64,000 nt of DNA from an uncultured Actinomycetes bacterium (GCA_963733155.1 CAVTCK010000017.1:9590-73589), one strand, 5' to 3'; positions 2,707-55,614 are shown, counted from the first letter of the stretch. Notes: generated from the letters alone by a model not told the origin. Program-made: numbers and translations.

Positions 2707-3273
2707 TCACGCCTCCTTCGCCGGGACGGCAGGTTCGCAGTCCGGTTCGTGTCCGTGGCCCGAGTTGAGTTCCCGGATTTGCGCCCGGGCCCTCGAAAGT
2801 CGCGAGCGCACCGTGCCTACCGGAACACCGAGCGCAACGGCGGCTTCCTCATAGCTGAGCTCGGCCCAGGCGCAGAGCGCAAGCACGTCCTGCTCTCGCC
2901 TGGGCAGCCTCGCGATCGCTCGTAGCACAGTTCGCATCTGACGCTCGTCGTCGAGCCGGCTGTTCGCTTCATCGGCAAAGTCGTGGGCGTGGTTGCGCGG
3001 CAGCCGCTCGAGCGCAGCGCGGTGCCGCCGCTGCGAGCGACGTCTGTTGCGGAGAACGTTCGTCGCCACCCCGAGCAGCCACGGCAGGACGAGCTCCCGC
3101 TCGAGGCGCACGTCCGTGCGGCGCCGCCAGGCCTCGAGGAAGACGACCGAGGTCAGGTCTTCCGCGAGCGCCCAGTCCGCCGTGCGCCGGAAGAGATAGT
3201 TGTAGATGGCCTGAGCGTGCCGTTCGAAGAGAACACCGAATGCGTCGGGCTCACCTCCACCGCACGCCTCCAC
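2707..3273 (-). CDS. ECF-type RNA polymerase sigma-70 family factor
   Basis: Region 2 (FERHAQAIYNYLFRRT...DLTSVVFLEAWRR) and region 4 (REQDVLALCAWAELSYEEAAVALGVPVGTVRSRLSRAR) are both recognisable. Confidence 0.85.
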   Translation of the reverse strand: MEACGGGEPDAFGVLFERHAQAIYNYLFRRTADWALAEDLTSVVFLEAWRRRTDVRLERELVLPWLLGVATNVLRNRRRSQRRHRAALERLPRNHAHDFADEANSRLDDERQMRTVLRAIARLPRREQDVLALCAWAELSYEEAAVALGVPVGTVRSRLSRARAQIRELNSGHGHEPDCEPAVPAKEA

Positions 3274-3305
3274 AGGTCACCATCGGTCGCCTGCCCCATC
3301 GACCG

Positions 3306-3334
3306 ATTATGTCCGCGAGCCGGAAAGAGTTCCC
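3306..3334 (-). promoter_or_regulatory. Candidate promoter of the ECF sigma gene
   Basis: On the minus strand: GGGAAC (3334-3329), a 17-nt spacer, then CATAAT (3311-3306), about 30 nt upstream of the start at 3273. Confidence 0.3.
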
Positions 3335-3349
3335 GCGTATCTTGAGAGA

Positions 3350-3395
3350 CGGGAGCGACGGGACCCGAACCCACGACCTCCGGCGTGACAGGCCG
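3350..3395 (-). repeat. Remnant copy of the 3' 46 nt of tRNA-Asp (att-like scar)
   Basis: cgggagcgacgggacccgaacccacgacctccggcgtgacaggccg matches the anticodon-loop-to-3'-end part of the intact tRNA-Asp at 6829-6902 with 2 mismatches. No D-arm or acceptor 5' half lies upstream. Confidence 0.7.
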
Positions 3396-6644: not shown

Positions 6645-6828
6645 CGCGAGCGGTTGAAGCTAGGCGATCACCGCGAGACGAAGCCCTGCGTCACGCTTGA
6701 GCAGATTGCAGCGCCGAGTAGCGTTGGACAGGCGGGCCAGAGCTGAGGAACGTTCAGGGCACTGAGCTGCAACCGCAGAGTGCCCGGACGTCTGTGCCAC
6801 GTCGGGCGCAAGCCGCTTGAGCAAAGGA

Positions 6829-6902
<74 letters not shown>

Positions 6903-7006
6903 GGGCGCCGGACAATCTTAGCCGCGGACGGGCGTCCCCGGGCGTGCCCAAGCGGAGCGAGGCGCCGCCGGTCACGGCGACGCCCCGCTCCAGGGCGGGC
7001 TCGGTC

Positions 7007-18740: not shown

Positions 18741-19167
18741 ATTCCCCGCCGCACGGTTACGCGGAACCCGCATGGCTGCGTGGGTCAGGTGTGTCGGGAA
18801 TGCCGGAAATGCGCGGCCCGTGCTGTCCCGGTGCTGTCTCAGGAAATCGCCGAACTTGACAGCGGCGGAGCCGGCGAGGCGCGGGCCGCAAGGTCTCCCT
18901 AGGACTACCCTGCCCGCGCCCCGGCGAGAGTCAGGCTATGGCTTGCAGCCGGGCTGCCTAGATGGCCGTTCTGGCCATCAGGCAGACGGCTCTCGCCTTT
19001 GCTGTTTAGCGGCGCCACCCTAGGCGACCGAATCTCGGACACTCAGCGGCCAACGCCGGTCCGAAGGGAGTGCGACTGTTATGGCGAATCCGACGCCGTA
19101 CAGACGCGAAGGCAGCGTGAGCTCCCTTCACGACGCGGCTTGTGACATTCCCAGAAGAGAGGTAGGG

Positions 19168-22638: not shown

Positions 22639-23130
22639 GTGATCCTGCGCGAGCCCGCTACCGCGCCCGACCCGCGGGTGCGGACGTACTGGCTGGTCGA
22701 GAACCTGATCGCCACCGGCGTCGTCGCGGGGCTCGTGATCGCGGGCACGGTCGTCGCGGCCCTGCTGGGCGCGAGCACGGTGGCGTGGCTCGTGGGCGGG
22801 CTCGGCGGGCTCCTCGTCGTCGTCCTCGTGGTGCTCTCGTTCGTCGGCGCCGGGCTCGACTACCGGCACTTCCGCTACGAGGTCGCCGACCTCGGGCTCG
22901 CCGTCGCGAGCGGCTGGCTCTGGCGCCGCTACCAGGTCGTGCCGCACGCCCGCGTGCAGACGGTGGACACGACCTCGAACCCGCTGATGCGCGCATTCGG
23001 CCTCGTCTCGGTCGAGGTGACGACCGCGTCGGCGGCCGGCGGCACCTCGATCCCCGGGCTGACTCCGGAGGTCGCCGATGGGCTCGTCGAGGAGCTCGCG
23101 CGCCGCGCCGGCTTGGAGGAGGGAACCTGA
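22639..23130 (+). CDS. YdbS-like membrane protein with a bacterial PH (bPH_2) domain
   Basis: Two TM helices (ATGVVAGLVIAGTVVAALLG...LLVVVLVVLSFVGAGL), then YRHFRYEVADLGLAVASGWLWRRYQVVPHARVQTVDTTSNPLMRAFGLVSVEVTTA. Start taken at GTG 22639. Confidence 0.7.
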   Translation: MILREPATAPDPRVRTYWLVENLIATGVVAGLVIAGTVVAALLGASTVAWLVGGLGGLLVVVLVVLSFVGAGLDYRHFRYEVADLGLAVASGWLWRRYQVVPHARVQTVDTTSNPLMRAFGLVSVEVTTASAAGGTSIPGLTPEVADGLVEELARRAGLEEGT

Positions 23131-23266
23131 GCGTCGCTCGCCTTCGGCTCGCTCCCGTGGGGGAAACCATGTTTCCCCCACGTGCCCCCTTCTTTGAGAC
23201 AGTGAGGGAACCTCCCGGGTCCCTCACACGCCCTCCCCACCCTCACAGGCCTGGTGGCCTGTGAGC
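23127..23266 (+). repeat. Family-A intercistronic repeat, copy 1 (three hairpins; open 45-codon frame ending in a GTGA overlap)
   Basis: About 85-90% identical by eye to 51731-51873. Hairpins at 23157-23181, 23202-23227 and 23242-23265. Bounded by TGAGCG on both sides (the stop at 23128-23130 and the start at 23261-23263). Confidence 0.85.
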
Positions 23267-24697
23267 GCGAGGGCCGCCGAGCTCGAGGGGCGCTTGCACC
23301 CCCTCGCCGTGCTCGTCTATGCGCGCCGGTTCATCGGCGCGAGCATCCTGCCCCTCCTCGTGCTTCTGGTCTCCGCGGGCACGCGCGTGCTCGTCCCGCT
23401 CCTGGCGGTCGCGCTCTTCGTCGGGCTGCCGCTCGCGATCCTTTCCTGGTGGCGCTTCCGCTACCGCGTGAGCGGAGGGCGGCTCGAGCTCCACTCCGGC
23501 GTCTTCAGCCGGTCCGTGCGGACGATCCCGCGGGAGCGGGTTCGCGGCATCGACGTGACCGAGCCGTTCGTCCACCGGCTGTTCGGGCTCGTCAAGGTGG
23601 AGGTCGAAGCGGCAGCGGGAGGCGACTCGAAGCAGGCCGAGCTCTCGCTCGCTGCCGTCTCGCGCGGGCAGGCCGACGAGCTCCGCGAGGCGCTGCTCGG
23701 CGGCGGCGCGGGCGCCGCCGAGGCGGCGGAGGCCGAGCCGCTCTACCAGGCGACGCCGGGCCTGCTCGCCCTCGGCGGGATCACGAGCATGAGCTACCTC
23801 CTGGCCCCGGCCGCGATCGTCGGCGTCGTGCTCAACTTGGCGGACGATCTGCCCGGCGACGTTGTCGAGAGCGCCGTCGAGGGTGCTGCCGACCGATTCC
23901 CCACCGACCTCCTCGGGCTCGTTCTAGTCGGAACGGCGGCGGTCGCCGTCGTTCTCGCGGCTGCCGCCGCCGGCTCGCTGCTCGTCGACTGGGCGTTCAC
24001 GCTCAGGGACGAGGGCGAGCGGCTGGCCGCCACCCGCGGGCTACTCACGCGTCGCGCCGTTCATCTCGACCGGGATCGCATCCGCGGCGCGGACGTGCGC
24101 GATTCCCCGCTCCGGCGGCCGCTCCGCCTTGCCTCCGTCACGGCGATCGCCGCCGGGCTGCGCGGCCGCACCGGCGGGACCTCGCTTGCACCCGTGCTTC
24201 GCTCGCGGTCCGTCCCGGCTCTTCTTCGCGCTGTCGATCCCGCGGCGCCCGACCCGAGCGCGCCGCTCGTCGCTCATCCGCCCGCCGCGCGGTGGCGGCG
24301 GCTGACGCGGGCACTGCCGCTGCCGCTCGCCGGCCTGGTCGCCGCCGCAGTCTTCGGTGTCCTCTGGGCAGTCGCCGCTGCGGCGGCGCTCACGGCTGCG
24401 GCTGTCCCGCTCGCGCTCGACCGCTACCGCCAGCTCGGACACGCGTACGACGGCCGGCGTCTCGCTCTGCGAGGAGGCACGTTGCGACGCCGCTGGTCGG
24501 AGGTCGATCCCGACGGCGTCGTCTCCTTCGACCTGCGGAGCTCGCCGGGGCAGCGCCGTGCCGGCCTCGCCACGCTCACCGTCCACCTCGGGCAGGGCGC
24601 CGGCTCGCGCCGTGCTCTGGACATCGGGGAGGAGCAGGCGGCCGAGCTCCTCGGCCGCGTACACCCGCAGCTCTTCGGACCTCTCAGCCGACGCTGA
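23261..24697 (+). CDS. YdbT-like membrane protein with repeated bPH_2 domains
   Basis: LHPLAVLVYARRFIGASILP...WWRFRYRVSGGRLELHSGVFSRSVRTIPRERVRGIDVTEPFVHRLFGLVKVEVEAA, followed by two further similar modules. GTG start. Confidence 0.8.
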   Translation: MSARAAELEGRLHPLAVLVYARRFIGASILPLLVLLVSAGTRVLVPLLAVALFVGLPLAILSWWRFRYRVSGGRLELHSGVFSRSVRTIPRERVRGIDVTEPFVHRLFGLVKVEVEAAAGGDSKQAELSLAAVSRGQADELREALLGGGAGAAEAAEAEPLYQATPGLLALGGITSMSYLLAPAAIVGVVLNLADDLPGDVVESAVEGAADRFPTDLLGLVLVGTAAVAVVLAAAAAGSLLVDWAFTLRDEGERLAATRGLLTRRAVHLDRDRIRGADVRDSPLRRPLRLASVTAIAAGLRGRTGGTSLAPVLRSRSVPALLRAVDPAAPDPSAPLVAHPPAARWRRLTRALPLPLAGLVAAAVFGVLWAVAAAAALTAAAVPLALDRYRQLGHAYDGRRLALRGGTLRRRWSEVDPDGVVSFDLRSSPGQRRAGLATLTVHLGQGAGSRRALDIGEEQAAELLGRVHPQLFGPLSRR

Positions 24698-25121
24698 GCA
24701 AGTCAGTGAGGGTCACCTTCAAGGCGTCGACGCGCTCGTCGTCGAGGCGACGCCGAACGAGCAGGTCGAGCTCGGCGAGCACCTCGGCGGCGATCGGCTC
24801 GAAGGCTCGGGCACGACTCGTAAGGAAGACAAGCGACGCGCGGCCGTCGCTCGGGTCCGCGCGCCGCTCGACGAGCCCGTCACGCTCGAGCCGCCGTACG
24901 AGCTCCGTCATCGTCTGCTTGCTCAGGCGAGACCGTCGTGCCAGCTCGCCCAGGCGAAGCCCGTCCTCCTCGAAGAGCGGCAGCAGGATGGAGCCGTACG
25001 ACGGGCGGATGTCCCCGTAGCCGGCTGCGGCGAAGCGCTCGGTCAGGAGCTCGTTCCAGCGCTGTGTCGCCTTGGCGAGCAGAAAGCCGAGGTCGTCACG
25101 GCCGACGGCCCGCTCGCTCAC
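24684..25121 (-). CDS. MarR-family transcriptional regulator
   Basis: LGFLLAKATQRWNELL...LRLGELARRSRLSKQTMTELVRRLERDGLVERRADPSDGRASLVFLTSRA. Confidence 0.85.
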   Translation of the reverse strand: MSERAVGRDDLGFLLAKATQRWNELLTERFAAAGYGDIRPSYGSILLPLFEEDGLRLGELARRSRLSKQTMTELVRRLERDGLVERRADPSDGRASLVFLTSRARAFEPIAAEVLAELDLLVRRRLDDERVDALKVTLTDLLSVG

Positions 25122-41349: not shown

Positions 41350-43815
41350 CGACGACTGCGCCCGAGCAGGTCGAGGCCCCGCAGAAGGGCTTCGCCGGCG
41401 AGAGCATTCCGCGCAAGGAAGACAAGCGCCTCGTGCAGGGACAGGGAGTCTTCGTCGACGACGTCCGCCGCCACGAGGTCGGCTACGTCCACTTCGTGCG
41501 CTCGCCCTACGCGCACGCGGCGATCACGAGCATCGACGTTTCGGCGGCCGAGGCGCTCGAAGGCGTCTACGGCGTGCTGATCGGCGAGGAGGTGGCCGCG
41601 CTCACCGATCCGTTCTTCCAGCTCTCCGTCCCCCCGGGCTCGGAGATCAAGGACTACGCCCTCGCGGTGGGCAAGGTGCGCCACCTAGGGGATCCCGTCG
41701 CGGCGGTCGCCGCGCGCACGCGCGAGCTCGCGCGCGACGCCGCCGAGCTCGTCGAGGTCGAGTACGAGCCGCTCCCCGTCGTCGTCGACCCGGAGCATGC
41801 GCTCGACGAGGACGCCGGCGTCCTCCACGACGAGGCCGGCTCGAACCTCGTCTGGTCCGGCGAGTTCGACTGGGGCGACTTCGAGGCGGCGCTGGACGAG
41901 GCCGACCACGTCGTCAGGATCGACCGGCTCCACTTCGACCGCTTCTCCTCGACCCCGCTCGAGACGAGCGGCGCCATGGTCGAGTACGACCGCGGAACCG
42001 GCCAGTGGACGATCCACGCGAACAACCAGTTCCCCGGGTTCGCCATCATCATGATGGGCGCCCGCGCTCCGCACCGGGATGGACAAGCTCCGCTTCGTCT
42101 CCCAGGACATCGGCGGCGGCTTCGGCAACAAGATCTGCACCCACCCGCAGCTGGTCGCGCTCTGCCTGCTCGCGCGCAAGCTCAACCGCCCCGTGCAGTG
42201 GACGGAGTGGCGCACGGACCAGCACACCGGGAACAGCCACGGGAACGAACGCGTCTTCCTCGACATCGAGGTGCCGGTCAAGGCGGACGGGACGATGCTC
42301 GGCTTCAGCGTGCAAGGCGATCGACGACTGCGGAGCCTTCAGCCGCTACGAGCCGCTCGGCTGCATCATCTGGGCGCAGGTGACGCCGGGGATGTACCGC
42401 TGGCGCAACGTTCACATCGACTTCACGCAGGTGTGCACGAACAAGTCCCCCTGCGGGCCGAACCGGGGCTACTCGCGCATGCAGCACCTCTGGTTCACGG
42501 AGCGCGTGATCGACATCGTCGCCCACGAGCTCGAGCTCGACCCGGTCGAGATCCGCAAGCGCAACTACATCAAGGCCGAGGAGATGCCCTACGAGACGCC
42601 GAACGGCTGCGTCTACGACTCCGGCGACTACGCGCGCTGCCTCGACATCGCCCTCGACCTCGTCGGCTATTCGTCGCTCGAGGAGAAGCGGCGAGACGCC
42701 GAGAGCCGGGGAAAGCTGCTCGGCGTCGGCATCGGCTCGACGCTCGACTCGGGGACGAACAACTTCGGCCAGTCCCAGCTCCTGAACCCGGATCTCCAGT
42801 TCTCGGGCAACAACGAGGTGGCGAGCGTCAAGCTCGACATCTTCGGCGAGGTCGTCGTCACCCTCGGAACGACCCCGCAGGGCCAGAGCCACGAGACCGT
42901 CGCCTCCCAGATCGTCGCCGACATCCTCGGCGTCACCCCCGACGACGTGCACGTGCGCGCCGGCCACGACAGCTACTGGAACACACACGCCGGCTTCTCC
43001 GGGACGTACGCGAGCCAGTTCGCGGTCACCGGCCTGGGCGCGGTCAAGGGAGCCACCGATCTGCTCGCCGACCAGATCCGGCGGCTGGCCGCGGTCATCC
43101 TCGGAGCAGACGGGCCCGGAAGAGATCGAGCTCGGCGGCGGCTTCGCCAAGCGGCGCGACAACCCGGAGGCCGCCCTGCCCTTCCTGGCCTGCGGCGCGA
43201 TCGTCAACGCGAACAACGCCGGGCTGCCGGAGGAGCTGGACGACGTCACGCTCAACTGCCGCTACGTCTACAAGCCGCCCTTCCAGGTGCCGGACAAGGA
43301 GCGCAAGTTCGGGAATCTCACACTCACGTACGCGTCCCAGATCCACGTGTGCGTGCTCGAGGTCGACCCCGAGACGGGCGTCTACGAGATCGTCGACTAC
43401 TCCGCCGTGGACGACTGCGGCAACCGCATCCATCCTCAGATCGTCGAGGGCCAGGTGCACGGCGCCGTCGCGCACGGGCTCGGAGCGGCGATGTTCGAGA
43501 CGATGGCCTACGACGAGGACGGGACGCTCCTGACGTCCAACTTCTACGACTACCACGTCCCGCACGCGCTCGACATGCCGCCGCTTCAGGACGGACGCGA
43601 TCGAGTCGCCCTCGCCCTTCACCTCGCTGGGGACGAAGGGGATGGGCGAAGGAGGCGGCGCGAGCATCCACGCGGTCTGCGCCGCCATCCAGGACGCGCT
43701 GCGCTCGGCGGGCAACGCCGTCGTCACCGACAGCCACAACCCGTACCACCGGGTGTGGGAGCTGCTCCGCAACCCCGAGGCCAGCCGGGAGCTCGTGAAG
43801 GTCGAGGCCCGGTGA
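41346..43815 (+). pseudogene. Molybdopterin-binding large subunit (CoxL/aldehyde oxidase/xanthine dehydrogenase family), about 5 frameshifts
   Basis: IPRKEDKRLVQGQGVFVDDV... / MDKLRFVSQDIGGGFGNK... / AIDDCGAFSRYEP...CGPNRGYSRMQH... / FAKRRDNPEA...EVDPETGVYEIVDYSAVDDCGNRIHPQIVEGQVHG / FTSLGTKGMGEGG, in alternating frames (ORFs 41172-, 42079-, 42005-, 43287-). The active-site loop matches neither the VAYRCSFR nor the AYRGAGR CODH signature. Confidence 0.8.
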
Positions 43816-44259
43816 AGGTCGAGGGCACGCGGAGCTACGCGGCCTCGCGCGAGCAGGTGTGGGAGGTCCTCAACGACCCGGCGGAGATGGCGGGCCTCAT
43901 GCCGGGCGTCGAGAGCTTCGAGATCGTGGACGACGAGCACTGGCAGGCCAAGGTCAAGGTGCCGCTCGGGCTCGGGAGCCTGCGCATGAGCATCGACTTC
44001 ACGAAGGCCGAGTCCCGTCCGCCCGAGCACGCCCGCCTGCAGGCGAAGGGCAAGGGCGTCGGGGCGATCATGAGCATGGAGACCCAGTTCGACCTGAGCG
44101 AGGACGGAGACGGCACGGCCATGCGCTGGGAAGCGGACGTCCGCATCCTCGGCCAGGTCGCGAGCATGGGCCAGCGCGTCATCCAGCCGATCGTGAACCA
44201 GCAGGTCGAGAACGTGCTCACCGCCCTCGACGCCCGCGGTCGCAGCCGAAGGCGCGTAG
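43812..44259 (+). pseudogene. CoxG-like SRPBCC subunit; a frameshift near the 3' end fuses the ORF to the next gene
   Basis: VKVEGTRSYAASREQVWEVLNDPAEMAGLMPGVESFE...MSMETQFDL...QRVIQPIVNQQVENVL. The expected end AVAAEGA-TAG (44257-44259) is in the +1 frame. The GTG start overlaps the coxL-like TGA. Confidence 0.7.
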
Positions 44260-50409: not shown

Positions 50410-51153
50410 GTGCTGGTCTTCCGACATTTGACATCTGATCAAATGCGCGGGACGATGGCCGTCGTGAAGCGCACGGCGCTCGCCCAGGGGAAGCCGCGTC
50501 ATCAGACGATGGCGGAGGCGGCGGTAGCGGAGCTTCAGGAAGGGATCCTTACGGGTGAGCTGCCGCCGGGGTCGCCGCTCCGGCTCGAGGAGCTCGCCCG
50601 CTCGCTCGGGATGAGCATCTCCCCGGTTCGCGAGGCGGTGCGCCAGCTGGAGGGCCTGGGTCTCGCGGTGCACGTCCCGCACCGCGGTGCGCGGGTCAGT
50701 GAGCTTGCGATCGAGGACCTGCACGACGCTTACGAGGCCCGGCTCGCGCTCGAGCCGCTGGCCGTCCGCCGGGCGGCGGTGCGGTTCACCGACGAGGACG
50801 CCGAGCGCGGGCGTGTGCTCCTGGACGACTACGCGGCGGCGCATCGGCGCGGCGATCAGCGGGCCGCCCGTCGCTTCCACGCCGAGTTCCACCTCTCCCT
50901 GTACGCCGCCTCCGGCTCGGCCTGGCTCATGCGCCTGATCCGCCCCGCGTGGGAGAACTGCGAGCGCTACCGCGCGCTCTCCCTTGCCGGGCGGTCGCTT
51001 CGCCAGCGGCGCGAGGAGCACGAGGCGATCCTCGCGGCCTGCGCGCGTCAAGACCCGGACGAGGCCGCGGAGCTCGTTCGCCGGCACCTCTCGCTGACCG
51101 CCAACCTCGTCGCCCGGCGCATGGGCGCCGGCGACCTCTTCGAGAACTCGTGA
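50410..51153 (+). CDS. GntR-family (FadR/FCD subfamily) transcriptional regulator; the start is probably internal (ATG 50455 or 50509)
   Basis: HTH: LPPGSPLRLEELARSLGMSISPVREAVRQLEGLGLAVHVPHRGARV. FCD-like helical C-terminus: FHAEFHLSLYAASGSAWLMRLI... Confidence 0.8.
   Translation: MLVFRHLTSDQMRGTMAVVKRTALAQGKPRHQTMAEAAVAELQEGILTGELPPGSPLRLEELARSLGMSISPVREAVRQLEGLGLAVHVPHRGARVSELAIEDLHDAYEARLALEPLAVRRAAVRFTDEDAERGRVLLDDYAAAHRRGDQRAARRFHAEFHLSLYAASGSAWLMRLIRPAWENCERYRALSLAGRSLRQRREEHEAILAACARQDPDEAAELVRRHLSLTANLVARRMGAGDLFENS
50425..50445. promoter_or_regulatory. AT-rich inverted repeat with an embedded TTGACA, immediately upstream of or within the 5' end of the GntR gene (candidate operator or internal promoter)
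   Basis: CATTTGA-catctga-TCAAATG. TTGACA at 50428-50433. Confidence 0.35.
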
Positions 51154-51734
51154 GCGACTACGCGGAATTCGCGCCCGACCCCCGGGTCCTCGTCGGCGGC
51201 TACATCGAGGCGGATCCCGCCTTCGCCCCGCGCCGGCCGGCCAGCGTGGACGAGGAGACGTTCAAGTCCGCGATGCGCTCGCTCGCCGCGGGCGTCGTCA
51301 TGGTGATCGCGCGCAAGGGCGACCGGCTCTGGGGCCTGACGATCAGCGCGTGCTGCTCGATCTCGGCCAACCCGCCCCGGGTGCTGATCTCGCTCGCCGA
51401 CGACGCGAGCTGCCGGGACGCGATCCTCGAGACGCGGCGCTTCGGCCTCAGCGTGCTCCGCGACGACCAGAAGCATCTGGCCGAGCTCGGCGCGGTGCCG
51501 GGCGCGCCCAAGTATGTGGACGTGTTCTGCGAGGACGCGGGCTCCGAGGAGCCGACGACGATGATCGCGGGCGCGCTCGTCCACCTCGAGTGCGCCGTCG
51601 AGCGCGTCTTCGGCGTGAGCGGCCACACGCTCCTGATCGGCGACGTTCAAGCAGTCGTCTCCTCGAGCCGCGAGGGCGGCCCGCTCCTCTACTTCGACCG
51701 CACCTTTCACGCGCTCGGAGACACCCTGCGATGA
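51150..51734 (+). CDS. Flavin reductase (FMN-binding split-barrel) family protein
   Basis: FKSAMRSLAAGVVMVIARKGDRLWGLTISACCSISANPPRVLISL...TLLIGDVQAVV...PLLYFDRTFHAL. GTG start in a GTGA overlap with the gntR-like gene. Confidence 0.8.
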   Translation: MSDYAEFAPDPRVLVGGYIEADPAFAPRRPASVDEETFKSAMRSLAAGVVMVIARKGDRLWGLTISACCSISANPPRVLISLADDASCRDAILETRRFGLSVLRDDQKHLAELGAVPGAPKYVDVFCEDAGSEEPTTMIAGALVHLECAVERVFGVSGHTLLIGDVQAVVSSSREGGPLLYFDRTFHALGDTLR

Positions 51735-51873
51735 GCGTCGCTCGCCTCCGGCTCGCTCCTGTGGGGGAAACCAGCGCTCCCCCACGGGCCCCCTTCTTTG
51801 AGACAGTGAGGGAACCTCCCGGTTCCCTCACACACCCTCCACACGCTCATAGGCCAAAGGTCGGCCTATGAGC
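51731..51873 (+). repeat. Family-A intercistronic repeat, copy 2 (46-codon ORF with ATGA overlaps at both ends; three hairpins)
   Basis: ORF MSVARLRLAPVGETSAPPRAPFFETVREPPGSLTHPPHAHRPKVGL, 51731-51871. Hairpins at 51761-51785, 51806-51831 and 51846-51872. Flanked by ATGAGCG on both sides. Confidence 0.85.
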
Positions 51874-53508
51874 GAGCGCTACGACGTCGTTTTCGTCGGC
51901 AGCGGCATCAACTCGCTCGTCGCTGCAGCTCTCCTCGCCCGCGGGGGGAAGCGCGTGCTCGTGCTCGAGCGCAACGACTACGTCGGGCGGCGCGATCCGG
52001 ACCGCGGAGATCACCGAGCCGGGCTTCGTGCACGAGGTCTTCTCCTCGCTGGCACCCGCTCTTCCTCGGCTCGGCGGCCTATGCCGAGCTTGGGGAGGAG
52101 CTGGGCTCGCGTGGCCTCGAGTACCTGAACACCGAGCTGCCGACGGCCTCGCTCTTCCCGGACGGCTCGAGCGCGTTCCTGAGCACGTCCCACGAGGCAA
52201 ACGTGGAGGAGTTCGAGCGGCTCGCGCCCGGGGACGGCGAAGCCTGGCGGCGGGTCGTCGACGGGTTCATGCCCACCGCCGACCTGGCGTTCGGCGTGCT
52301 CGGCACGGAGCTCTGGTCGTCGTCCGGCGCCGGCCTCGGCGTCAAGGCGTACCGCCGGCTGGGACGGCGCGGCCTGGTCGAGTTCAGCGGCGCTCTGCTC
52401 GCCTCCTGCCGCGACTGGGTCGCCGAGACGTTCGCCTCACCGCAGGTGCACGGGCTCCTCGCCCCGTGGGTCCTGCACACGGGGGTCGGGCCGGACGCGG
52501 CCTCCTCCGGGTTCATGACCCGCGTGATCGCGGTGGCGATCGAGCTCGGCGGCATGCCGGTTCCCCGCGGCGGCGGCGTGCGGCTCGTGGAGGCGCTCAC
52601 GGGGATCGTCCGCGACGCGGGCGGCGCCTGCGAGACGGGCCGCGACGTGGAGCGCGTCCTCGTCCGCGACGGACGCGCCGCCGGGGTCGCGCTCGCCGGG
52701 GGCGAGACCGTCGAGGCCGGGGAGGCCGTCGTCGCCAACGTCACTCCGACCCAGCTCTACGACCGGTTGCTCGCCGGCGTCTCGATCCCGGCCGAGACGG
52801 CGGAGGCGGCCCGCCGGTTTCGCTACGGCCGCGCGGGCATGCAGATCCACATGGCCCTCTCGGAGCCGCCGCGCTGGGCGGGCGACGAGCGGCTCGGGCG
52901 CACCGCGATCGTCCACCTCACGCCCGGCCTCGACGGCGTCTCCCGGGCGGTGAACGAGGCAGAGCGGGGGCTGCTCCCGGCCGAGGCGACGATCGTCTGC
53001 GGGCAGCCGACGACGGTCGACCCTTCGCGCGCTCCGGAGGGCGCGTCGATCCTGTGGATCCAGCTCCAGGAGCTGCCGGCGCACGTGCGCGGCGACGCCG
53101 CCGGCGAGCTCGACGTCGGAGACGGGGCGTGGACGGGAGGGCTTGCGGGAGCAGTACGCAGACCGCATCCAGGCCCGCCTCGCGCTGCAGATCGAGAACC
53201 TCGACTCGGCGCTCCTCGAGCGCGTCGTCCTCTCGCCCGCGGACATCGAGACGGCCAACATGAACATGGTCGGCGGCGACATCTACAGCGGCTCCTGCAG
53301 CCTCGACCAGAATCTCGTCTGGCGGCCGCGCCCCGAGCTTCCCGGCCACGGGACGCCGATCGACGGGCTGTACCACATCGGCGCGAGCACGCATCCCGGC
53401 CCCGGGCTGGGGGCGGGCTCGGGGACGCTCGTGGCGAAGCACCTGCTCAAGCCGCCGCTCCCCAAGCGGGCGCTCAGCCGCCTGGGATCGCTTCGGGAGC
53501 GGGTTTGA
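51868..53508 (+). pseudogene. Phytoene-desaturase-family NAD(P)/FAD-dependent oxidoreductase (CrtI-like), 3 frameshifts
   Basis: MSERYDVVFVGSGINSLVAAALLARGGKRVLVLERNDYVG / AIRTAEITEPGFVHEVFSS / HPLFLGSAAYAELG...MEEFERLAPGDGEAW...GMPVPRGGGVRLVEAL... / REQYADRIQARL...GGDIYSGSCSLDQ...GLYHIGASTHPGPGLGAGSG, in ORFs 51868-, 52028-, 52203- and 53143-53508. Confidence 0.8.
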
Positions 53509-54725: not shown

Positions 54726-55614
54726 GTGAGCCCGTCCGCTCCTCCCTTTGCGGTCTGCGAGTTCACGACGCTCAACGCGAGCTTCGAGGACGACCTTGCC
54801 GCGTATCGCGCGGCCGGCGCGAGCGGGATCGGCATCTGCGAGATCAAGCTCGAGGAGGGCCGCGAGGAAGAGCAGCTCGAAGCGTTCAGGGCGAGCGGCC
54901 TCGAGGCTACGAGCGCAGTCCCGGCGGTGCCGTCGATCCTGCCGCTTCCCCACCTTCCCGGTCCCGGAGGATCCGGCCGCGCGGATCGAGGCTCTCCGCG
55001 CGAGCGTCCGGCGGCTCGCGCCGTTCGAGCCGACCGCGCTCGTATGCCTGACCGGCCCGGCCGGGGCGCTCGGGAACGAGGACGCGCGGCGCCTCGTCGT
55101 CGCCGGGCTCCGAGCCGTCGCGGACGAGGCTGAGCGCGCAGGATTCCCCGTGGGGCTCGAGCCGATGAGCGCCCACTTCCGCGAGGACTGGACGATCGCG
55201 ACGACGCTCGACGAGGCGGCCGAGCTTCTGCGACGAGGCCGGCCACGAGAACGTCGGGATCCTCTTCGACACGTGGCATCTGTGGGACACCGCGGACCTG
55301 GCGGGGGCGATCCAGGGTCACGCGCCACAGGATCGTCGGCGTCCACGTGAACGACTGGCGTGAGGAGACGCGAGGCTGGTGCGATCGCGTTCTCCCGGGA
55401 GACGGTGTCGCGGACCTCCCGGCGATCCTCGGCGCGCTTGCGGACGCCGGCTGGAGCGGCGCCTACGAGCTCGAGGTCTTCTCCGGACGACGGGACGTTC
55501 GGATCGGCGTATCCCGATTCCCTCTGGAAGGAGGACGCCGGCGACCTCGCCCGCCGCGGACATGACGCGTTTCGCCAACTGTGGGAGCGGCCCGCCGTCG
55601 AAATGAAGGCGTGA
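54726..55614 (+). pseudogene. Sugar-phosphate isomerase/epimerase (xylose-isomerase-like TIM barrel), 4 frameshifts
   Basis: FAVCEFTTLNASFEDDLAAYRAAGASGIGICE / DPAARIEALRASVRRLAPF...GFPVGLEPMSAHF / DEAGHENVGILFDTWHLW / RIVGVHVNDW...LPGDGVADLPAILGALADAGWSGAYELEVFS / DGTFGSAYPDSLWKEDAGDLARRG, in alternating frames. Confidence 0.8.

Follow-up and report, generated by a model that had tools for sequence, protein, structure and literature searches.

Mycobacterial interspersed repetitive units (MIRUs), described by Supply et al. in 1997 and summarised since (PMC12548453, PMC3184786), are mobile repeats that insert at start codons and carry an internal ORF coupled with a spacing of −4 (PMC12548453). 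They have tetranucleotide direct repeats, occur as filled and empty sites, and contain GC-rich internal inverted repeats and ORFs that overlap the neighbouring genes (PMC3184786). Their units, of 77 and 53 bp, stand in tandem, and their occurrence is confined to M. leprae and the M. tuberculosis complex (PMC4213456). Other mobile repeats that come to terms with expressed regions include the Rickettsia palindromic elements (RPEs), which fuse in frame with genes (PMC10969869).

Two copies of a repeat of comparable build had been noticed in a 64,000-nt stretch of DNA (hereafter the window; 69.5% GC) from an uncultured Actinomycetes bacterium (CAVTCK010000017.1:9590-73589), and the original prediction likened them to MIRUs, as intercistronic repeats whose small ORF overlaps the flanking stop and start codons. 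We find that both copies belong to a family in Gaiellaceae and related genomes, which would by analogy work like a MIRU, the likeness being one of design and placement.

Results

Two copies of a hairpin repeat in the window

On re-reading the sequence, the coordinates of copy 2, its translation (MSVARLRLAPVGETSAPPRAPFFETVREPPGSLTHPPHAHRPKVGL) and its overlaps with both flanking genes all proved correct (Table 1), as did, for copy 1, the CTG at 23127, the upstream stop at 23128-23130, the GTG at 23261 and the TGA at 23262-23264, with the frame between them open as in copy 2. Both neighbours of copy 1 are members of the bPH_2 family, and homologues of a neighbour gene are named "PH domain-containing protein [Gaiellaceae bacterium]" at NCBI. 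The two copies are identical at 123 of 140 positions. The differences listed in the original prediction were confirmed in every point: the sole gap is one of 3 nt in the SL3 loop (tggt versus aaaggtc), one SL3 pair is changed in a compensatory manner from C–G to T–A, by which the downstream start is switched from GTG to ATG, and SL2 has one mismatch in copy 1 and none in copy 2. The SL2 mismatch is strain-specific, SL2 being perfect on a contig of 98.7% identity. The similarity of the two copies is more than chance, as 0.00 matches to element probes of 23 and 26 nt are expected in shuffled sequence and the folding z-scores against shuffles are −5.5 and −4.1 for the two copies.

Table 1 Parts, copies, target sites and edge triplets of the repeat (window positions unless a locus is named; unit order: left RTGA, SL0, SL1, linker, SL2, spacer, SL3)
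Feature	Position or locus	Strand	Remarks
Upstream gene of copy 2, flavin reductase	51150..51734	+	Pfam Flavin_Reduct, E=2e-29
Copy 2, whole unit, left ATGA to right ATGA	51731..51871	+	46-codon bridging ORF and its stop; covariance model score 163 bits
Left ATGA of copy 2	51731..51734	+	flavin-reductase stop TGA 51732-51734 overlaps bridging-ORF start ATG 51731-51733
SL0 of copy 2, short hairpin GCTCGCC-TCC-GGCTCGC	51740..51756	+	stem covaries in other copies
SL1 of copy 2, hairpin	51760..51786	+	loop and inner stem degraded relative to the family consensus GTGGGGGAAACCATGTTTCCCCCAC
Linker of copy 2, unpaired, CCCCCTTCTTTGAGACA	51789..51805	+	nearly invariant in the family
SL2 of copy 2, perfect 11-bp hairpin	51806..51831	+	CCUCCC-type loop
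SL3 of copy 2, 12-bp hairpin	51844..51874	+	loop AAAGGTC
Downstream gene of copy 2, CrtI-like FAD/NAD oxidoreductase	51868..53508	+	NAD(P)-binding Rossmann N-terminus
Copy 1, whole unit, left edge CTGA, right edge GTGA	23127..23264	+	between ydbS-like 22639-23130 and ydbT-like 23261-24697
SL0 consensus			GCxxGCC-UYC-GGCxxGC
SL1 consensus			GTGGGGGAAAC-CAT-GTTTCCCCCAC
Linker consensus			CCCCCTTCTTTGAGACA; almost invariant, unpaired
SL2 consensus			GTGAGGGAACC-TCCC-GGTTCCCTCAC
SL3, 3' arm			right RTGA and 2-3 further bases
Empty site, GTGA between MoCoBD_2 and CoxG genes	43812..43815	+	filled in L026, L028
Empty site	L042		filled in L045
Empty site	L009		filled in L030
Empty sites, copy 1 locus	L056, L058		acGTGAgca (L056), acATGAtgg (L058)
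Edge agreement beyond consensus AGC: AAG	L026/L028, L043		
Edge agreement beyond consensus AGC: AAC	L031		right edge and arm only
Edge agreement beyond consensus AGC: ATC	L027		right edge and arm only
Edge agreement beyond consensus AGC: ACN	ilvB/ilvN junction		

The 3' arm of SL3 in copy 2 holds three signals at once, namely the downstream ATG (51868-51870), the stop codon of the bridging ORF (51869-51871) and the second codon of the downstream gene, and the two remaining forward frames across the bridge are closed by TGA codons lying in the linker and where SL2 begins. The coding frame of the downstream CrtI-like gene, as read from third-position GC, changes at least twice (at about 51990-52107 and about 53070); either the gene is a pseudogene or the sequence contains indel errors. 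An intrinsic terminator or attenuator was rejected, there being no site in 51400-52200 with a GC-rich hairpin followed by a T run, and a scan for promoters and terminators gave nothing. A covariance model of the family, searched for diverged or partial copies, returned only the two known copies from the window; a weak SL2-like match at 19106 is unrelated to the family.

A repeat family of Gaiellaceae and related genomes

Further members were collected with an exact 20-mer from the unpaired linker, CTTCTTTGAGACAGTGAGGG. Among contigs representing one genome per species, this query found 18 true loci, all in Gaiellaceae, Solirubrobacterales or unclassified Actinomycetota MAGs, and one chance match; in JGI metagenomes it found 30 true loci. 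The 48 true matches from the two collections reduce to about 36 distinct loci in genomes of Gaiellaceae and related Thermoleophilia and in soil metagenomes. The covariance model, built from 30 copies, added two diverged copies within the recovered loci. One operon (L030) has three copies at consecutive gene junctions within 5.4 kb (1-135, 1931-2082 and 3228-3376), and many copies lie at contig ends, as expected of a dispersed repeat. The unit, of 134 or 137 nt with four hairpins, is single at every locus, and no tandem array of units was found at these loci; nor did the recovered loci contain a parent insertion sequence or solitary end modules.

Comparison with Rfam, which had been proposed as a check, yielded no matching family under either gathering or permissive thresholds: only tRNAs reach the gathering score in the window, and the best local matches have E > 0.5. 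The literature search found no prior description in Thermoleophilia and none of "MIRU-like" elements, and this family of small mobile repeats of soil Gaiellaceae is apparently undescribed.

Insertion at RTGA junctions

Since these genomes are GC-rich, the true coding frame on each side of the element could be read from third-position or codon-position GC. Judged in this way, the upstream gene truly stops at the left TGA in about 27 of 33 loci, and the downstream gene truly starts at the right RTG in about 27 of 31. Every copy runs in the direction of its neighbouring genes, and the genes flanking different loci are unrelated. More rarely, the element is found at the RTG-A with which the first gene of an operon begins, and one copy with a broken frame (L041) follows a TAA and has no downstream gene. 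Five orthologous empty sites were recovered (Table 1), each consisting of a plain native RTGA, that is, a 4-nt overlap of stop and start codons, which indicates that the element inserts there. We therefore regard it as highly probable that these sequences form a repeat family inserting at RTGA junctions. One of the empty sites lies in the window itself, and from the alleles compared the junction at 43812 is an insertion polymorphism among related strains. At least nine RTGA junctions of the window are unfilled, two of which read GTGAGCG (51150-51153, and 25118-25121 on the minus strand) and are still empty, so that the targets are not saturated.

Two further repeats of the window were recorded. 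Across the MoCoBD_2/CoxG junction, the 13-nt sequence GTGAAGGTCGAGG is repeated at a distance of 23 nt (about 43789-43801 and 43812-43824); its reading as an excision footprint was abandoned, as L026, a filled allele, also has a near-copy of the first occurrence. A 48-nt copy of the 3' part of tRNA-Asp, 96% identical, lies 3.4 kb from the intact gene (3348-3395 and 6826-6903), as would be left by an element integrated at the tRNA; the interval contains two RibD_C genes and an ankyrin-like ORF, and no integrase was seen in it.

A bridging frame and a buried start codon

The reading that we favour, as probable though with considerable reserve, is that of a MIRU-like mobile repeat at RTGA junctions that carries a ribosome-bridging ORF. 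The repeat encodes no transposase and presumably relies on an enzyme supplied in trans; among the recovered loci no mobilising gene, such as a Y1 transposase (TnpA or RAYT), was noticed. Upon insertion, the native TGA would stay at the left edge as the stop codon of the upstream gene, and a second RTGA at the right edge would rebuild the start of the downstream gene. The left RTG would then be the native start codon, with its native Shine–Dalgarno sequence still ahead of it, and, the length being 2 mod 3 with one frame free of stops, a ribosome starting there would translate a bridge of 45 or 46 codons. In doing so it would melt all four hairpins, including SL3, in which the downstream start is hidden, and would end on the TGA that overlaps this start, where it could reinitiate. 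Such a relay would make insertion inside operons tolerable. The survey of the family supports the argument from frame in the original prediction. Most copies measure 135 or 138 nt from the left RTG to the right TGA, with 132 nt in L031 and 54 nt in L057; the units are accordingly 134, 137, 131 and 53 nt long, every one of which is congruent to 2 mod 3, and the bridge is open and in frame in 26 of 32 full copies. We put the chance that most copies would function in this way at about even.

A different reading, which is possible but on the whole rather unlikely, is that of a selfish hairpin repeat whose ORF is incidental and which persists at RTGA junctions by virtue of its target specificity and of the start codon that it restores. 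The downstream genes would then initiate independently, through breathing of SL3 and its purine-rich loops, and the open frame would have been inherited from a master copy in GC-rich sequence. Several features of the frame agree with this. Six of the 32 full copies (L022, L024, L027, L040, L041 and L045) are out of frame or meet a stop about 60 nt ahead of the downstream start, and they in part supply what the original prediction had said would speak against it, namely copies with stops in this frame or with incongruent lengths. L024 and L045 have each lost 1 nt from a run of C, L022 has likewise lost 1 nt, and SL3 is shorter in L040. In these copies, a ribosome from the left RTG would terminate 13-64 nt short of the downstream start, and yet the downstream gene looks intact in four of the six, showing that a relay is not obligatory. 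Counted as events, about three indels are in frame or compensated, and five or six break the frame. Moreover, the copies differ by only about 10-15%, so that the openness of the frame is mostly inherited; a reverse-strand frame is largely open as well; and a substitution test for the avoidance of stops in the bridge frame had no power, new stops being rare in all frames. The lineage of copy 1 (the window copy, L059 and L057) has CTGA at its left edge and hence no canonical start for the bridge, with ACC-TGA standing where the empty orthologues have ACG or ACA, giving a GTG or ATG start; the frame has nonetheless been kept open in three relatives.

Other features speak against an incidental frame. 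Both alternative forward frames are closed by conserved TGAs. In the middle copy of the three in one operon (L030:1931), a +1 and a −1 shift are accompanied by the loss of the TGA of the intermediate frame, and the bridge stays open with a different middle peptide. In the copy 1 orthologue L057 (1148-1204), a 53-nt derivative that runs straight from the left end and SL0 into SL3, the deletion is of 84 nt, in frame, and leaves a bridge of 18 codons. Finally, all length variants inspected in the wider superfamily keep the 4-nt overlaps at both ends.

The state of the downstream start codon weighs in the same direction. Of 36 copies, 33 have it paired within SL3, the folding energies being −15 to −33 kcal/mol; in most copies the hairpin that holds the start reaches −20 to −30 kcal/mol and a clear Shine–Dalgarno sequence is lacking. 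Only 12 of 36 copies have a strict core (GGAG, GAGG or AGGA) in the SL3 loop, 6-8 nt ahead of the start, a minority in which independent initiation, as the selfish reading has it, would be served by the loop itself. Because the start is mostly paired and a strict core mostly lacking, independent initiation should be poor in most copies, and this is the main, though indirect, argument for the need of a ribosome arriving from upstream. The buried start matches models of RNA unfolding and reinitiation that have been reviewed (PMC12548453).

Covariation of the hairpins

In the 30-copy alignment, 93.6% of the cells assigned to hairpin stems can pair. Changes on both sides of a pair were found in 13 pairs, against 6.0 ± 1.4 in shuffled alignments, none of 500 shuffles reaching 13, and sliding the partner columns against each other lowers the pairing to 29-50%. 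SL3 bears most of the covariation (7 of its 11 pairs), one of its positions being A–U, G–C and C–G in 12, 10 and 5 copies, respectively; SL1 and SL2 hardly vary. SL3 also covaries within a single orthologous locus (L013 versus L023).

The conservation of the element in place is high. Orthologous copies are 92-94% identical, against 57-61% at the 4-fold sites of the downstream gene, and copies at the ilvB/ilvN junction are 86-93% identical against 66-74% at 4-fold sites; it is the interior (SL1, linker and SL2) that is invariant, and the ends are locus-specific. Together with the strong covariation of SL3, including that within one locus, this conservation is what would be expected of a domesticated cis-regulatory or mRNA-stabilising RNA, the hairpins of which set or condition downstream translation or protect the upstream message (cf. 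REP, BIME). We consider such a role improbable all the same. The flanking genes are unrelated and Rfam contains no counterpart. About 10 cells of the alignment are G·U and about 14 are A·C, so that G·U is not in excess and nothing points to selection on the sense RNA strand in particular; a role of the hairpins in DNA accounts for the pairing data equally well. Interior conservation, moreover, fits either purifying selection or concerted evolution between copies. At one pair of loci (L006 and L040), the flanks are 83-91% identical at 4-fold sites and the elements only 80%, which points to a probable re-insertion or replacement at the same site.

The bridge peptide and a superfamily of bridges

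Third-position GC is 0.61-0.64 in the bridge and 0.88-0.97 in the neighbouring genes, and hence the bridge is not an ordinary host gene; to judge from its composition, the peptide itself is not the object of selection. A role of the 46-residue peptide as a functional microprotein or a regulatory leader peptide is most improbable: its core, PFFETVREPPGSLTH, is conserved, many copies have been annotated by gene callers as hypothetical proteins and its PPG-type motifs could stall ribosomes, but the conservation is at the nucleotide level with no synonymous excess, the third-position GC of 0.61 contrasts with about 0.93 in host genes, the peptide is altered in the middle of L030:1931, a related 63-codon family reads an SL2-like module in another frame and a Pfam search gave no match.

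A protein search with the bridge peptide, in a sample biased to open frames because it is drawn from gene calls, returned 133 matches, many of them "hypothetical proteins" of 46 residues. A large group has 63-64 residues, and smaller groups have 48 and 56-57. An N-terminal module, MSVARLRLAPVGETMFPPRAPFF, is common to all groups, and most of the full-length peptides shown end in a C-terminus of the type ..AHRPKVGL, the middle differing from group to group; it is the 63-64-residue group that reads the SL2-like module in another frame. On the DNA, this sister family of 63-64 codons (L051:3001-3192; proteins P0026-P0120) shares the 5' module and SL3 and has an extra middle hairpin. Overlaps of 4 nt at both ends were verified at DNA level for L051 (63 codons), L060 (47 codons) and L061 (51 codons). 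The result is a modular superfamily with bridges of 18 to 64 codons and the same ends.

In some database proteins (P0242, P0245, P0259, P0251 and P0258), the bridge is fused C- or N-terminally to neighbouring genes. A hopanoid operon contains, between hpnG and ispH, an element (L054:3001-3240, L055:1082-1321) whose 5' module and middle resemble the 63-codon family and which has about 55 nt of diverged 5' coding sequence of ispH on either side, so that its bridge begins with a duplicate of the IspH N-terminus (..LLAAPRSFCAGV).

Regularity of the edges

The two bases that follow the right TGA are the same as the two that follow the left TGA, and are the complement of the outer 5' arm of SL3. This agreement extends beyond the consensus AGC to several other triplets (Table 1), among which AAG is native at the window junction 43812, as its empty site shows. 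At two further loci, right edges of TGAAC and TGATC had been predicted from peptides alone (MN...VH and MI...HH), and both were confirmed on DNA. The AAG copies do not form a single subfamily, since two of them differ in the SL3 backbone. At 11 loci the left edge has ACC and the right edge AGC, which rules out a simple target duplication of 6-9 nt as the whole story. The second codon of the downstream gene differs at several loci, being Ser in the filled allele and Thr in the empty orthologue or in the left-edge copy of the target; this is so at the L045 junction, compared with the empty orthologue L042, and the same difference is seen between L036 and the orthologous window gene at 55611, where the upstream neighbours differ.

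Two accounts fit these edges. In one, a 5-nt duplication (TGANN) comes first, and template switching or selection then lengthens the palindrome, which changes the arm in some cases and codon 2 in others. In the other, a mechanism like that of IS200/IS605 elements would use the arm as a guide, and the right RTGAGC would travel with the element. That the element chooses its target, or is moulded to it, by base pairing between the SL3 5' arm and the start codon with codon 2 is an unlikely proposition.

Discussion

Referring to the published descriptions of MIRUs, the resemblance put forward in the original prediction holds for build and placement, and fails for unit organisation and host. As in MIRUs, the element is intercistronic within operons and lies in the orientation of the genes, its ORF ends overlap the stop and start codons of the neighbours with a −4 spacing, both ends carry tetranucleotide repeats (here RTGA), filled and empty sites occur (five empty ones here), the internal inverted repeats are GC-rich, the unit lengths leave a remainder of 2 on division by 3 (MIRUs, 77 and 53 bp; the present family, 134, 137 and 53 nt) and classes differ by in-frame internal deletions. 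In clear contrast, MIRUs are units of 40-100 bp that often form tandem arrays (VNTRs), whereas the units found here are single, non-tandem and 134 or 137 nt long; four strong hairpins dominate them, and in one of these the downstream start codon is buried. The hosts differ as well, those of MIRUs being mycobacteria and those of the present element Gaiellaceae, a different class of Actinomycetota.

The RPE is likewise a palindromic mobile repeat of about 150 bp in which an open frame makes insertion in expressed regions tolerable. However, RPEs are inserted inside coding sequences as translational fusions, whereas the Gaiellaceae element stands between coding sequences with the stop and start codons kept, although a few fused variants are found in databases. 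The Neisseria REP2 and Borrelia upstream repeats (PMC3184786) differ in that they also bear a promoter, lie upstream of genes but not on a stop/start overlap, and have no bridging ORF.

As to its ends, the element is not a classical MITE, its extreme ends not being complementary; the sole end-related inverted repeat is formed by ATGAGCGT on the left, which pairs with the 5' arm of SL3, and the short direct repeat TGANN is present. The lack of terminal inverted repeats, the hairpins near the ends and the strict orientation are shared with the ends of IS200/IS605 elements and of their derivatives that lack a transposase, namely palindrome-associated elements and REP/REPIN-RAYT systems, although REPs are only 20-40 nt long and often occur in inverted pairs. 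Insertion beside a short specific sequence (here TGANN) is also typical of IS200/IS605-type elements, but the ends fit a 5-nt duplication equally well. IS200/IS605 elements recognise their cleavage sites through pairing with guide sequences, and the outer 5' arm of SL3, complementary to the junction, recalls this pairing; the complementary stretch here, unlike that of IS200/IS605, pairs with the junction in one uninterrupted helix. Were the arm a guide, the system would be one of hairpin-guided transposition of single-strand DNA in the style of IS200/IS605, aimed at gene starts, which rebuilds the start codons and couples them to a ribosome-relay ORF.

In practical terms, the repeats break assemblies and add "hypothetical proteins" of 45 to 64 residues to databases, and the filled alleles at several loci carry the Thr/Ser difference at codon 2. 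The bridging reading, if correct, would show that the strategy of MIRUs, a mobile repeat hidden on the stop/start overlaps of operons and carrying a bridging ORF, arose or spread outside the mycobacteria, in a deep, largely uncultured actinobacterial lineage. The anatomy is cleaner here, the unit being single, the hairpins having defined boundaries and the start codon being held within a stem that covaries, and the family offers a natural test bed for termination-reinitiation and for the unfolding of hairpins driven by the ribosome.
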